From a virus, in UHGV virus genome UHGV-1775278: a DNA stretch of 13,880 nt. One strand, given 5' to 3'. Below, one piece after another: positions 1,856 through 13,304 of the stretch (its first letter is position 1; each line of letters begins with the position of its first letter). The notes beneath the pieces were generated by a model. That model did not search any database. It saw only the letters and a program-made list of their open reading frames with translations, and was not told the DNA's origin. The position numbers and the translations under genes are program-made.

Positions 1856-2155
1856 TTATTGTGTCATTGCCTGGTAGATAAAATACACGATGCATACCGG
1901 TACGATAGCCCATTGCAGCAATGAAAGCAGCCTCATGGCTGTCATTGGAGTAACTCCGTCTACGTATTCCTTCTCTGACATTTTCCCTAACCAACTAACC
2001 GACAAAAGGGTCGAGTTCTCCCCCATTTCCAGCTCCCTGAGGGCTTCCCGGATTAAAGGCGCTGTTACCACCTTGCGGGCGGTGTTGAGCGTAATGCTCC
2101 GCGTCCTCCCGGCGTCATCGGCAAACGCCAGGTTCACATGATATTTTTTGCTCAA
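1856..2155 (-). CDS. Small hypothetical protein with C-terminal hydrophobic (probable transmembrane) segment
   Basis: The ORF track gives 1856-2170, but that start has no Shine-Dalgarno. An in-frame TTG at 2155 has GGGAG 8 nt upstream and overlaps the upstream stop as TTGA. C-terminus LLSLLQWAIVPVCIVYFIYQAM is hydrophobic. No family recognised. Confidence 0.5.
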   Translation of the reverse strand: MSKKYHVNLAFADDAGRTRSITLNTARKVVTAPLIREALRELEMGENSTLLSVSWLGKMSEKEYVDGVTPMTAMRLLSLLQWAIVPVCIVYFIYQAMTQ

Positions 2156-2352
2156 TGTACAAACTCCCAATCATCAGCGCCTGTACTTTCCGGGGTAATG
2201 TGAACCTTATCACCAGTGACAATATTCCGAGCCTCTATTGTTCCATTGCTGTGTTTCAACAACTCAACACACAATGGTTGCTGCCAGGAACGACGGCGAG
2301 CAACAACGTTAGCACCAGCAGGGATAAGTTCAGCCACGTTAAGTAAACGCAA
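2152..2352 (-). CDS. Small 66-aa protein, paralog of the 11762-11959 gene; tentatively DUF2829/Tad2-like
   Basis: TTG start with GGAGA 7 nt upstream, 14 nt after the VRR-NUC stop. Shares with the other copy the layout A..G.A.V.RR..W near the N-terminus and DW(E/I)(F/V)V at the C-terminus (GANVVARRRSW ... GADDWEFVH). Family assignment is from memory of the family pattern, not a search. Confidence 0.5.
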   Translation of the reverse strand: MRLLNVAELIPAGANVVARRRSWQQPLCVELLKHSNGTIEARNIVTGDKVHITPESTGADDWEFVH

Positions 2353-2366
2353 AACGATTTCTCCGT

Positions 2367-2675
2367 TTAATCAAGACAAACATATTCCGTGATAGCTTTT
2401 ATGGCTTCAGCGGCACTGCGCGCCTCAAAGCAGTAGTAACCTGCTTCGGTGAGGCGAGTCATCCAGACGAGTTGTTCGGGAGTCAGGCGATTTCTCCCAT
2501 GTTTCATCTCAATGCGCATTCCGTGGTATCCCCCACAAGCAAGGTCTATAGAAAGATCGGGATATCCCTTCTTTTGGCCCTCTGCCACCATTTTTATTGC
2601 CGTCCTTATGCCTCGCAGACCGCCGTTTGGAGTGGCGTGTGTATGCTCATACACATAGCGCATATTGCGATACAA
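2367..2675 (-). CDS. VRR-NUC domain nuclease (PD-(D/E)xK superfamily)
   Basis: Motifs HATPNGG, KGYPDLSI, GMRIEMKHGRNRLTPEQ and a C-terminal EAGYY..EARSAAEAIKAI helix match the VRR-NUC pattern. The only canonical start is TTG at 2675, but the frame stays open to 2810 and the extra codons still look like VRR-NUC helix 1 (HYEQVRVLDWL). Confidence 0.75.
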   Translation of the reverse strand: MYRNMRYVYEHTHATPNGGLRGIRTAIKMVAEGQKKGYPDLSIDLACGGYHGMRIEMKHGRNRLTPEQLVWMTRLTEAGYYCFEARSAAEAIKAITEYVCLD

Positions 2676-2812
2676 CCAATCCAGGACGCGTACCTGCTCG
2701 TAATGCTCATGGTTCCTTTTGATTAGATCTGGGTTTTTCTCCAGTTCTCTGAGAGCTGCGGCATGTGGGGACGTTTCAGAATATTCACTGCGACGCCTTC
2801 TTTTCCTCGCTA

Positions 2813-2822
2813 TTTTCTAACA
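2813..2822 (-). promoter_or_regulatory. Copy 4 of conserved element TTTTCTAACA
   Basis: Lies at the head of the VRR-NUC operon; the TAG inside the element is the stop that opens the VRR-NUC reading frame. Confidence 0.5.
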
Positions 2823-2996
2823 CACCCATTGATAGTAAATAAGCGAAATAATAACAACTGCGTTAGATTTGTAAAACAAGAGAGATACTACTCAAGGCTG
2901 GGCTATATGCAACAGGTAGGATTTGCTTTTAGAGTAAAAAGTGACCTTAATCAACAAGGAGGGTAAATCGCATGGCATTTACCCAACTTGTTATTT

Positions 2997-3257
2997 TTAA
3001 AGGTTTATTTTATCCGGTTCGGATATTTCTGTGATTGTCTTGTCGATTGCGATCAACCACCCTTCATAGGTTAAATCATCAACAAGCTCTACCAGTTTGT
3101 CTTCTGTATGAGGGAAGTATACCCAGCTCCAGCTCGCTGGGTTTTCTGCTTTTCGCAGCGTAAAAACCTTCTTGTAACGGTGAAACTCAAGGACATACCC
3201 CTTCGATATGGAATATTCCTTTAGGTCTTCGACCGTAAACCTACGATTCTTTCGCAT
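2997..3257 (-). CDS. Hypothetical protein (86 aa)
   Basis: ATG start 2 nt after the stop of the 144-aa gene (TAGccATG) with a G-rich stretch upstream. Last gene of the operon that contains the giant gene. No family recognised. Confidence 0.5.
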   Translation of the reverse strand: MRKNRRFTVEDLKEYSISKGYVLEFHRYKKVFTLRKAENPASWSWVYFPHTEDKLVELVDDLTYEGWLIAIDKTITEISEPDKINL

Positions 3258-3259
3258 GG

Positions 3260-3694
3260 CTACCCCATGATTCGATATTTCTCTATTGACTCGTCGTAAC
3301 TTGTGTACACGTATGGCTCTGTATCATCAGCATAAGGTGCGACTTCCAGAGCATGAACGGGATTGTATACCGCGTCATTTTCCAGGCGATCGCTCGAATA
3401 CAGATGCCCAGCCAAAACCGTAAGCGCCGGGCGACTCATTTTGTAGATCTCTGCCACATCACTATCTACAACTTGTCCAAATGATATGTCGCCGCGCTCC
3501 AGCAATATCGTTTTGAGCGCGGGCCACCACGGACCATAAAGGTGATAAAGCTGTGGATTTTTCTTCAGCCTTTCTACCATGCCATCAAGATAAACTGTCA
3601 GGTATTCTTCTTCACTCCTGCCATTGAGTGCCTGCGGCAAGATTTCCTCAAGGTAGGATTCCGTCGGTTTTACAGTGTCAATTAGTGTCGTCAT
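3260..3694 (-). CDS. Hypothetical protein (144 aa), immediately downstream of the giant methyltransferase-helicase gene
   Basis: ATG at 3694 lies 36 nt after the giant ORF stop. Same strand, acidic protein, no family recognised. Confidence 0.6.
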   Translation of the reverse strand: MTTLIDTVKPTESYLEEILPQALNGRSEEEYLTVYLDGMVERLKKNPQLYHLYGPWWPALKTILLERGDISFGQVVDSDVAEIYKMSRPALTVLAGHLYSSDRLENDAVYNPVHALEVAPYADDTEPYVYTSYDESIEKYRIMG

Positions 3695-11959: not shown

Positions 11960-12666
11960 CACTCACCTCCCCAACCGATCACCTGGAATTGCCCCATTTT
12001 GGGGTGATACCAGCGTTTTCCTCGGTGTTCAGCCTCAGACATCATCCGGTTAAAGGCATTCATAAAGGGAGATAAGGCCACAATAGAACGACGCGACAAT
12101 ACCCCCTCTGGCGTTAAAAACTCATGCGTATCGGTGGGGATACGGTAAGCATTGACCAGGTTACGGCATTTGGCTTCAGTCAGGCCGCATTTCGCCGCTA
12201 ACTGGCGGTAGCCAATGTAACCATCTGGCATGTTACCCTTCTTGATTTGCTCGACGGTTTCTACCACCTGGCTAACCTTTGACTCAACAACATGAAGCCG
12301 CTTTTGCTGCTGAACTGCATTTGCAGCCATTGCGGCGATCATCTCTATTTCGGTCAACGGCTGGCGTACTTGTTCTTCCAGTTCGCGCCAGCGGTCCACC
12401 AGCCGGGCGGTGAATTCCGGAGAGAGCTGCGCAACGACAATAATGCTGTCTCGTTTGCCTTGCTCGCCTTCGAAGACGTAAGCCTCGACACTACGGCGTA
12501 GTCCTAAGTTATTGATTTTTTCGAAAACCTGCAATGCAGGAAGTTGAATAACTCCAGATTTAGCCAGGCGCTCTATTGATATTTTTACGTTATCTGGACG
12601 ACTTCCCACCAGCTCCGCGATCTCAATGCTGGTCATTGATGGCTTTTCAAGAATGCAGATATCCAT
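11959..12666 (-). CDS. Rha-family phage regulatory protein (antirepressor-like)
   Basis: N-terminal MTSIEIAELVGSRPDNVKISIERL matches the Rha-family start pattern. Preferred start is the ATG at 12666 (GGAGG 7 nt upstream, ATGA overlap with the upstream ORF stop); the ORF-track start at 12711 has no Shine-Dalgarno. Confidence 0.8.
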   Translation of the reverse strand: MDICILEKPSMTSIEIAELVGSRPDNVKISIERLAKSGVIQLPALQVFEKINNLGLRRSVEAYVFEGEQGKRDSIIVVAQLSPEFTARLVDRWRELEEQVRQPLTEIEMIAAMAANAVQQQKRLHVVESKVSQVVETVEQIKKGNMPDGYIGYRQLAAKCGLTEAKCRNLVNAYRIPTDTHEFLTPEGVLSRRSIVALSPFMNAFNRMMSEAEHRGKRWYHPKMGQFQVIGWGGE

Positions 12667-13088
12667 CAGTGTGCCTCCGCAATTCCGGGATTGGTAATAT
12701 TGCGATACCAAGGATTAGTGTTTGGTTGTGATGAAGTAGAGAAACGGCCAGTCAGGACGCCATGTTGATCAGGGATCAGAGAACGGGCTTCTTTTTCAGT
12801 TGCGGCAATTGCGAAGTGATCACAGTGTTTTTGCAGGGAGTGGAAACGCCAGATAAATTCCGGGCGCGAGCAAGGATTGGCATTAACCATAGTTACGGCC
12901 TCATTCGTAGGTTTAACAACCTGCGCCCCGCTGCTAAACGGGTGGCAGGACGTGACGGGGTTAGCAGACTGGCACGAATGAAACCAGCAGGCCGAAGCCT
13001 CCCCATCACGCCCCACCATAATTCGGGCGTAACGTGGTTTTACGGACACAAAAATACCGCAATATCGGATATCTGCGGTTGTCCGCAT
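12666..13088 (-). CDS. Hypothetical Cys/His-rich protein (140 aa), uncertain
   Basis: Open frame between element copy 5 and the Rha gene, ending in an ATGA overlap with the Rha start. Six Cys and several His (CWFHSC, SCHPF, HCDHF). No convincing Shine-Dalgarno at either candidate ATG, so it could instead be a long 5' leader. Confidence 0.35.
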   Translation of the reverse strand: MRTTADIRYCGIFVSVKPRYARIMVGRDGEASACWFHSCQSANPVTSCHPFSSGAQVVKPTNEAVTMVNANPCSRPEFIWRFHSLQKHCDHFAIAATEKEARSLIPDQHGVLTGRFSTSSQPNTNPWYRNITNPGIAEAH

Positions 13089-13240
13089 TCGTATTCAGGC
13101 TGCTAAACCCGGTCGCAGAATTTGCTACGACGACATGAATATAAGCCTGAAAACATGGAAGATCAACTAAAAATTTCAGCAATGGATGACTTCAGTCGAT
13201 GATGCAGATCATACATTCCGATTTAGAAACAGCAAATTAA

Positions 13241-13250
13241 TTTTCTAACA
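13241..13250 (-). promoter_or_regulatory. Copy 5 of conserved element TTTTCTAACA, with inverted partner TTAGAAA 12 bp away
   Basis: Lies in the intergenic region between the stop of the partial gene (13305) and the 140-aa ORF / Rha operon. TTAGAAA at 13223-13229 is the reverse complement of TTTCTAA at 13242-13248. Confidence 0.5.
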
Positions 13251-13304
13251 CAAATTATCGGGCGAGCATTTTCCGATCATTGGGATGCTTTGTAGACACA
13301 CAGG

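Follow-up and report, generated by a model that had tools for sequence, protein, structure and literature searches.

The coding region of a VRR-NUC nuclease gene on the minus strand of UHGV virus genome UHGV-1775278 (13,880 nucleotides; hereafter the window) reaches approximately positions 2807–2813 and not just the TTG codon at 2675, where the only canonical open reading frame (ORF) begins. As judged from its sequence, the gene is the D6-lineage orthologue of P1 pmgM and encodes a small VRR-NUC (PD-(D/E)xK) nuclease with a short basic N-terminal tail. Among relatives of Escherichia phage D6 (the D6 clade), the conserved region has no canonical start codon except in a rare allele, and it begins beside a variable A-tract that abuts a repeated element, a candidate operator for a C1-type repressor. 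We tentatively propose weak, Shine-Dalgarno-independent initiation at an invariant ATA codon (2813–2811), a reading to which we assign slightly less than an even chance. The features that bear on this question are as follows.

2367–2813, minus strand: putative full coding region of the pmgM-family VRR-NUC nuclease, 148 codons, ATA 2813–2811 to TAA 2369–2367
2367–2675, minus strand: only canonical ORF, TTG start, 102 amino acids (aa), identical to RefSeq WP_001350898.1
2811–2813, minus strand: ATA, proposed non-canonical initiation codon, the only near-cognate codon between the TAG and the conserved SPHAxAL helix
2813–2816, minus strand: polymorphic A-tract, A4 in the window, directly after the operator core
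2814–2823, minus strand: core of repeated element copy 4, which holds the in-frame TAG 2819–2817; candidate D6-type C1 operator
2697–2699, minus strand: GAG encoding Glu E40 in the EH(Y/F)xQV motif of the long N-terminal helix, upstream of TTG 2675
2502–2558, minus strand: core nuclease motifs GYPD to IEMK (D87, 2558–2556; E103, 2510–2508; K105, 2504–2502)

The frame of the 102-aa ORF is open upstream to the TAG at 2819–2817, which adds 47 codons on the minus strand (KIARKRRRRSEYSETSPHAAALRELEKNPDLIKRNHEHYEQVRVLDW). A sequence-only reading of this stretch had described this open frame, and had correctly located its TAG within copy 4 of the repeated element (GTGTTAGAAA at 2814–2823). It had also stated that the added stretch contains no in-frame ATG, GTG or TTG; this is the case, and the only near-cognate codons are ATA (2813–2811), CTG, ATC and a further CTG. 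An open run of 47 codons is not significant alone, as it would be expected by chance with a probability of (61/64)^47, or ~0.1. Rather, the extension is real because of its homology and its pattern of substitutions.

The claim that VRR-NUC homology continues upstream of TTG 2675 was borne out by each comparison. The Pfam VRR_NUC profile (PF08774) aligns residues 31–135 with profile positions 11–115 of 116 (26.4 bits against a cutoff of 23.8), beginning 17 residues upstream of the TTG. phrog_2363 matches residues 13–148 (E=1.1e-48), and P1 PmgM aligns from residue 14, with 57% identity over residues 14–148 (tblastn, P1 and P7). Across six orthologues that span D6-like to P1 proteins, with identities down to 53%, 14 columns upstream of the TTG are invariant (H18, A19, A21, L22, L25, N28, P29, L31, N35, E37, H38, Q41, V42 and D46), and conservation of this region is confirmed by 27 homologues (46–84% identity), all but one of which also carry a basic tail of 13–40 residues before SPHAxAL. 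A scan of genome contigs returned only P1-type relatives.

The added residues are also part of the predicted fold. An AlphaFold2 (AF2) model of the extended protein (predicted local distance difference test (pLDDT) 83.7; predicted template modeling score (pTM) 0.79) contains helices at residues 16–26 and 35–50, with block-mean pLDDT values of ~76–94, and the TTG 2675 codon corresponds to residue 47, near the end of the second of these helices. The best Foldseek match is 4QBL (probability 1.00, 34% identity over 116 columns), followed by 4QBN and 4QBO, and 4QBL is also matched by sequence (E=8.5e-14). The alignment to 4QBL starts at Q41, and the solved 4QBL structure reaches ~10 residues N-terminal of that point. 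Counting from K1 of the extended translation, D87, E103 and K105 are invariant across the sets of 6 and 28 homologues and align to 4QBL, while E40 is near-invariant in the same sets (Asp in three homologues). We take E40 to be the first acidic residue expected of a PD-(D/E)xK site, its catalytic role being assumed from knowledge of the family. The extended protein thereby carries the VRR-NUC series of a helix-1 Glu, then PD, then ExK.

Substitutions in 33 intact D6-clade genes, with codons numbered from the ATA, locate the point at which coding constraint begins. Codons 48–149 show 21 synonymous and no amino-acid-changing alleles, and codons 4–46 show seven synonymous alleles and one amino-acid-changing allele; codon 3 retains Arg through AGG, CGA and AGA. 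By contrast, the 13 codons between an upstream TTG and the operator, read in the frame of the A5 allele, show two synonymous and nine amino-acid-changing alleles (Fisher p=6e-6 versus the gene body and 0.005 versus codons 4–46). The pattern indicates neutral evolution upstream of the A-tract and strong constraint downstream of it, and this boundary places the onset of selection on the protein sequence at, or within three codons of, the ATA. The sequence-only reading had named a lack of similarity between the upstream peptide and VRR-NUC N-termini as grounds for dropping its claim; the peptide is similar to VRR-NUC profiles, is under purifying selection and forms part of the fold. The ATA itself is invariant in 45 of the 45 D6-clade loci examined. 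The codon that follows it varies (GCG, TCG or GAG, for Ala, Ser or Glu), and the A-tract that precedes it varies in length.

These 45 loci, drawn from complete plasmids, IMG/VR contigs, draft genomes, metagenomes and isolates, comprise 34 with A5, eight with A4 (the window included) and three with A6, and tract length differs among otherwise near-identical sequences. Tract alleles were counted directly from the DNA; counting them from gene calls was rejected, as a 98-aa call spans both A4 and A5 DNA. From this distribution A5 is the majority and, by sequence comparison, the ancestral length. The A4 loci fall into at least three haplotype backgrounds and the A6 loci into a different one; thus, at least four independent indel events have taken place at the tract and the variation is no sequencing artefact. 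Each length alters what lies in frame with the nuclease. The A4 allele places the operator TAG in the nuclease frame, with A5 the open frame runs on to a TTG 15 codons upstream, and the A6 allele brings the equivalent of an ATG at 2829–2827 into frame, giving a 154-aa product (MGVLEKIARK...) that is found on 59 contigs. Within the gene body, which also contains a G5 run, two further A5 runs show no indels among the 45 loci. If the three A5 runs were equally mutable and neutral, all four events would fall on one given run with a probability of (1/3)^4, or ~0.012. Frameshifts in the gene body are limited to two singletons, neither at an A5 run. One is a G5 to G6 change at the window equivalent of ~2535 (CP042620.1) and the other a single G deletion in ATATCCC(G)ATC (IMGVR_UViG_2778261184_000002); these could be real nulls or assembly errors.

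The start positions of relatives cluster around the same point. In the L008 clade (~76% DNA identity, seven loci), TTG ATG is aligned to the ATA GCG of the D6 clade, at least one of the two start codons is always present, and in six of the seven loci a stop in the same frame closely precedes the operator. The L009/L010 clade has its ATG or GTG six codons before the GTT, and the operator is inside the ORF. In loci L037 and L038, AGGTGA is followed by an ATG and preceded by a stop. In a relative on a Raoultella plasmid (70% protein identity), the sequence is GTG AGA AAA ATA GCA (MRKIA) where the D6 clade has GTT AGA AAA ATA GCG. The simplest history suggested by these sequences is that an ancestral GTG start was lost to the T that completes the operator core, after which canonical starts evolved anew close by in two lineages but not in that of D6. 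The P1-type N-terminal motif LRF(S/T)E(D/E)W is absent from the D6, L008, L010 and L037 clades.

Some details of the L009 and L010 loci (NZ_CP099330 and NZ_CP026816) stand apart from this comparison. Their ATG or GTG lies exactly 6 nt after an extended −10 (TGTTAATTT or TGTTACTAT) and ~25–40 nt upstream of the operator core, without a Shine-Dalgarno sequence, which suggests that their nuclease mRNA is leaderless. Between the two loci, the first 26 codons differ by 11 nonsynonymous and no synonymous changes, and only synonymous changes are found after HAAAL.

Upstream of the gene, the sequence points to a single good promoter, which overlaps the TTG that opens the longer annotated forms.

2848–2875, minus strand: sigma-70-like promoter, −35 TTTACA 2875–2870, 16-nt spacer, TG 2856–2855, −10 TATTAT 2853–2848
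2855–2857, minus strand: upstream TTG, annotated as the start in D6 and, for A5 alleles, in RefSeq (163/164 aa); out of frame in the window; overlaps the extended −10

The predicted promoter matches 10 of the 12 consensus positions and has the TG of an extended −10. The stretch TTGTTATTATTT, which holds both the upstream TTG and the extended −10, is invariant in 37 D6-clade loci, its flanks vary, and sister clades retain the motif as TGTTACTAT or TGTTAATTT. Transcription is predicted to start near 2841, downstream of the upstream TTG.

The repeated element that adjoins the A-tract is found at several places in the window, always on the strand of the nuclease gene.

367–376, 523–532, 1772–1781, 2814–2823 and 13242–13251, minus strand: element copies, RTGTTAGAAA(A/T)yTAAtt
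12258–12267, minus strand: weaker element match, inside an ORF

The six matches to GTGTTAGAAA compare with 0 of 200 shuffles that reach six, and the match at 12258–12267 may be a chance one. The D6 genome has 12 exact cores, which lie upstream of c1, on both sides of ref, next to repL and cre, before pmgS and at the nuclease gene, and many have an inverted partial copy 12–16 nt away. The window copy at 13242 (copy 6) is ~100 nt upstream of the a1/b1 targets and the C4 RNA, the same position as P1 Op51; in P1, the C1 operators Op82 and Op83 flank pmgL-pmgM. Because of these positions (c1, ref and the c4 region) and the inverted partial copies, we read the element as probably the operator of a D6-type C1 repressor and not a mobile element. 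A P1-type late (Lpa) promoter or a plain extended −10 (TAGAAA resembling the P1 LP26 −10, TAGAAT) was considered and rejected, as no conserved 9-bp box lies upstream and the positions fit C1 operators. A literature text search for the element motif returned nothing relevant.

With these elements in place, initiation at the ATA could proceed as follows. A C1-type operator would have been placed on the 5′ end of the gene, with GTG AGA AAA ATA GCx becoming GTT AGA AAA ATA GCG; the transcript would arise from the conserved promoter at 2875–2848; and translation would begin, without a Shine-Dalgarno sequence, at the ATA directly after the operator core, giving low output of a potentially toxic nuclease. 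The A-tract would then fall within the 5′ leader, where the in-frame TAG of the A4 allele would be harmless and where the persistence of the A4, A5 and A6 alleles would be explained. A start that served all three alleles and lay upstream of SPHAxAL and downstream of the TAG would have to be the ATA. Indeed, the near-cognate codon is conserved, and no canonical in-frame start lies upstream of the selected coding sequence. Initiation at the ATA would account for the sharp constraint boundary, for a tract that varies freely when the gene body does not, and for where the starts of relatives lie. AUA initiation in E. coli systems reaches roughly 1–15% of AUG, with values of ~1–2% in vivo, 7.5% for the HB-3 murein hydrolase and ~15% for a T4 rIIB AUG-to-AUA mutant (bioRxiv 10.1101/063800; PMC5499595).

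Several points weigh against ATA initiation. No Shine-Dalgarno sequence is present at a useful distance from the ATA, the GGGUG 10–11 nt away being itself variable. We are not aware of any well-documented case in which E. coli or one of its phages naturally initiates at AUA, which makes for a low prior. Invariance of the ATA could stem from operator constraint, as the other copies usually have T and A at +3 and +4 after the core. The promoter and the transcription start are predictions, the argument for AUA use is a comparative one, and the A4 alleles are so recent that no substitutions reveal continued selection on them. Moreover, P1 pmgM is non-essential (PMC10695390), so null alleles could persist.

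Several other ways of initiating or entering the frame were considered, involving two further features.

2708–2710, minus strand: out-of-frame ATG preceded by AAGGA, not conserved
2785–2829, minus strand: out-of-frame small ORF from ATG 2829–2827, encoding MGVLENSEEKKASQ before its stop in the window allele; only A6 brings the ATG into the nuclease frame

The ATG at 2710–2708 is, as previously noted, out of frame, and was rejected as a start; the L008 clade has TAC at this position. A frame-2 ORF from GTG 2788, with a well-spaced GAAGG and encoding VNILKRPHMPQLSENWRKTQI up to its stop, differs in length in L008 and is missing from L009 and L010, and thus is not a conserved gene; feeding of the nuclease frame from it was ruled out, there being no slippery heptamer. 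A leaderless mRNA that begins at the ATA was rejected because no −10 lies at the right distance. Read-through of the UAG from GTG 2825 (GTG TGT TAG AAA ATA) would be possible in A4 only and has no supporting feature.

Among the alternatives to ATA initiation, two can be essentially excluded. That the short ORF is the functional gene, starting at TTG 2675 (or ATG 2663) with the upstream similarity a relic, would suit its being the only canonical ORF in the A4 allele and its RefSeq entry (WP_001350898.1). However, in place of TTG 2675 the L008, L009 and L010 clades have CTG or CTC and P1 has TTC, and even within the D6 clade the codon varies among TTG, ATG and CTG; orthologues thus do not start consistently at this position, and the 102-aa RefSeq protein is judged to be a truncated call because sister clades have CTG or CTC there. 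A short start would also sacrifice 43 upstream codons under purifying selection, the helix at 16–26 and 12 of the 16 residues of the helix at 35–50, among them the conserved Glu and three invariant residues (H, Q and V); the solved 4QBL structure likewise has ~10 residues before the alignment start at Q41. The 98- and 102-aa forms are the commonest public calls, but these calls are inconsistent: at least five lengths (98, 102, 154, 163 and 164 aa) are in use for the same gene, WP_001350898.1 being the 102-aa and WP_223231459.1 the 163-aa form. The Prokaryotic Genome Annotation Pipeline (PGAP) calls either 102 or 163 aa on A5 DNA, depending on the plasmid, and only 74 aa in the L008 clade despite its clear TTG ATG start; the 98-aa call, made on A4 as well as A5 DNA, therefore reflects gene-caller habit and not biology. 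We regard a functional short ORF as very improbable, and of the three options left by the sequence-only reading, namely a start at TTG 2675 without helix 1, a non-canonical start, or a start or frameshift lesion, the first is refuted and the other two stand, given the A4 allele and the clade-wide lack of a canonical start outside the rare A6. Still less probable is that the missing A is a sequencing or assembly error. Single-base homopolymer errors are common in long-read assemblies, and the extra G in CP042620 may be one, but A4 is found in complete plasmids of E. coli, Shigella and Salmonella from different laboratories, in IMG/VR contigs, draft assemblies and an ENA metagenome, and in several haplotype backgrounds.

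The main competitor, which we nonetheless consider unlikely, is that A5 genes start at the upstream TTG (2857–2855) to give 163–164 aa, with the operator inside the coding sequence, and that the window A4 allele is a 1-nt deletion that creates the in-frame TAG and is a tolerated null. In that event A4 would yield at most an inactive fragment from TTG 2675 or ATG 2663. The frame is open to the TTG in every A5 locus, A5 is the ancestral length, the D6 authors and some PGAP runs annotate the gene in this way, and the L009/L010 clade does have the operator inside the ORF, downstream of an ATG or GTG; the dispensability of P1 pmgM (PMC10695390) would make a null tolerable. Yet the TTG lies within the conserved extended −10 (TTGTTATTAT) of the only good promoter, and because it is part of that −10 the transcript probably starts downstream of it. 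The TTG also lacks a Shine-Dalgarno sequence, the 13 codons it would add evolve neutrally (nine nonsynonymous to two synonymous) and encode a hydrophobic stretch, unlike the basic tails of relatives, and the L008 clade has a stop in this stretch. Nor does a null sit well with a gene body under strong purifying selection: supposedly null tract alleles arose at least four times and make up about one-quarter of loci, whereas frameshifts elsewhere are two singletons, with none at the equivalent A5 runs. Less probable again, and in our view a poor fit, is a switch in which the A-tract controls access to the ATG at 2829–2827: A6 would be "on", A5 would give low output through a −1 tRNA-Lys slip on A_AAA_A beside the UAG (a "shifty stop") or through re-initiation at the overlapping AUAG, and A4 would be "off". 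The A6 allele does place this ATG in frame, with its product on 59 contigs, the A5 small ORF ends in ...GAA AAA TAG such that a −1 slip there would give the exact A6 protein, and tract length changes recurrently. But the equivalent of the ATG is lost in three loci (ATT in L026, ATA in L056 and L062), all of them A5, no X_XXY_YYZ heptamer is present, and RNA around the start folds no better than shuffled controls (z −0.1 to −1.6); this is not the pattern of programmed −1 frameshifting, for which a slippery heptamer, a stimulatory element and a zero-frame start conserved with them would be expected. The supposed "on" allele is the rarest (3/45), and purifying selection across A5 lineages would need to work through a low-efficiency slip. 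Phase-variable contingency loci turn ORFs on and off through long hypermutable tracts, typically of at least 7 nt. The tract here, at 4–6 nt, is far below these, yet it has undergone at least four length changes, with none at comparable runs in the gene.

The region around the gene identifies the window as, by sequence, a D6-like member of the P1 family of phage-plasmids, since positions 2100–3300 share 92.6% identity with Escherichia phage D6 and are 100% identical to ~92-kb non-mobilizable plasmids of E. coli and Shigella. The clade is very common in E. coli, Salmonella and Shigella phage-plasmids, with thousands of contigs. A 2318-aa ORF is a darB homologue, and on the minus strand it is followed by ulx, orf13, the nuclease gene, orf11 and the pmgR and pmgS homologues. 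The nuclease gene is annotated in D6 as orf12, "similar to P1 pmgM", 164 aa.

2961–2984, minus strand (hairpin in both strands): terminator-like hairpin between the orf13 homologue (2997–3257) and the nuclease gene

This terminator-like hairpin sets the nuclease gene apart from the darB-ulx-orf13 unit. Its stem bases are changed with pairing kept in sister clades (TT/TC to TT/GG). The L009 and L010 loci have a shorter CTGGGT stem followed by TTTTTT, a gene-strand T-run found only in these two, and in the window the hairpin looks more like an opposite-strand terminator. Elsewhere in the window, Rfam identifies a C4 antisense RNA at 12938–13023 (minus strand, 71.9 bits) and an a1/b1 target region at 13092–13144 (minus strand, 52.2 bits), which together are a P1-type immI module. 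At ~320–345 on the minus strand, 3′ of the element copy at 367–376 and with no convincing ORF there, a conserved inverted repeat (CTTTGGC-N9-GCCAAAG) might belong to a small RNA or serve as a terminator; a short ORF after the same operator copy differs in frame between the window and D6.

The immediate consequence of these findings is a corrected annotation, as the commonest public calls drop the helix with the conserved active-site-type Glu. The locus would also be a clean natural example of a regulatory DNA site that evolved atop a start codon, and its three sister lineages, with three solutions, make start-codon turnover directly testable. Should the ATA prove to be used, an enterobacterial phage would provide one of the few documented natural AUA starts, and in a genetically tractable element, with the A4, A5 and A6 alleles as ready-made controls; low output would suit a junction-cutting nuclease. 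A bolder possibility, which we think doubtful, is that in this common clade an operator overwrote the GTG of a selected nuclease and left it with a natural AUA start, such that A4 and A5 give low output and A6, with its AUG in frame, gives high output. The tract would then act as a heritable dosage dial for a potentially toxic resolvase. In biological terms the stakes are limited, given that P1 can form plaques without the orthologous gene.

The closest known counterparts are P1 PmgM (gp086, 192 aa) and P7 Upf81.2, which belong to the same family and share the basic N-terminal tail, the SPHAxAL helix and the VRR-NUC core. The genes of both P1 and the D6 lineage adjoin C1 operators, a candidate operator in the latter. 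P1 pmgM differs in having a canonical ATG coupled to the pmgL stop, whereas no canonical start serves the conserved region in the D6 clade; P1 PmgM carries an extra conserved N-terminal LRFSEDW that the D6-lineage protein does not; and the D6-lineage gene lies after darB-ulx-orf13 and before the pmgR and pmgS homologues. The GYPD...ExK motif is shared with 4QBL, 4QBN and 4QBO and with the FAN1 nuclease domain, while the N-terminal helix SPHAAALRELE and the basic tail are additional to the 4QBL alignment. According to structural work from 2014, small prokaryotic and viral VRR-NUC proteins are reportedly dimeric Holliday-junction resolvases. P1 C1 operators are dispersed, asymmetric 17-bp sites, both mono- and bivalent. 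The candidate D6 sites resemble them in their many dispersed copies with one orientation relative to the controlled genes, in their positions upstream of c1, ref, the c4-icd-ant region, repL, pmgS and the pmgM-family gene, and in the frequent inverted partial second copy, and differ in sequence, RTGTTAGAAAAyTAAtt as opposed to what we take to be the P1 consensus, ATTGCTCTAATAAATTT.

The AUU of infC is an example of a conserved non-canonical start codon, and there, as proposed here, a near-cognate codon would set low expression. The two differ in that AUA use is suggested by comparative data, without a Shine-Dalgarno sequence and with no sign of autoregulation. As in homopolymer phase variation and in −1 frameshifting of the dnaX type (A_AAA_AAG), the length of an A-run decides which upstream start is in frame, and a Lys codon on the run beside a stop could slip. 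Here, however, the tract is only 4–6 nt, has no heptamer or stimulatory structure, and has an upstream ATG that is dispensable. Non-canonical initiation and start-codon turnover are thus already known kinds of event, and the gene itself is ordinary. What is unusual is their setting, a very common clade with no canonical start, a candidate operator atop the probable former start codon and a recurrently changing A-tract beside it.

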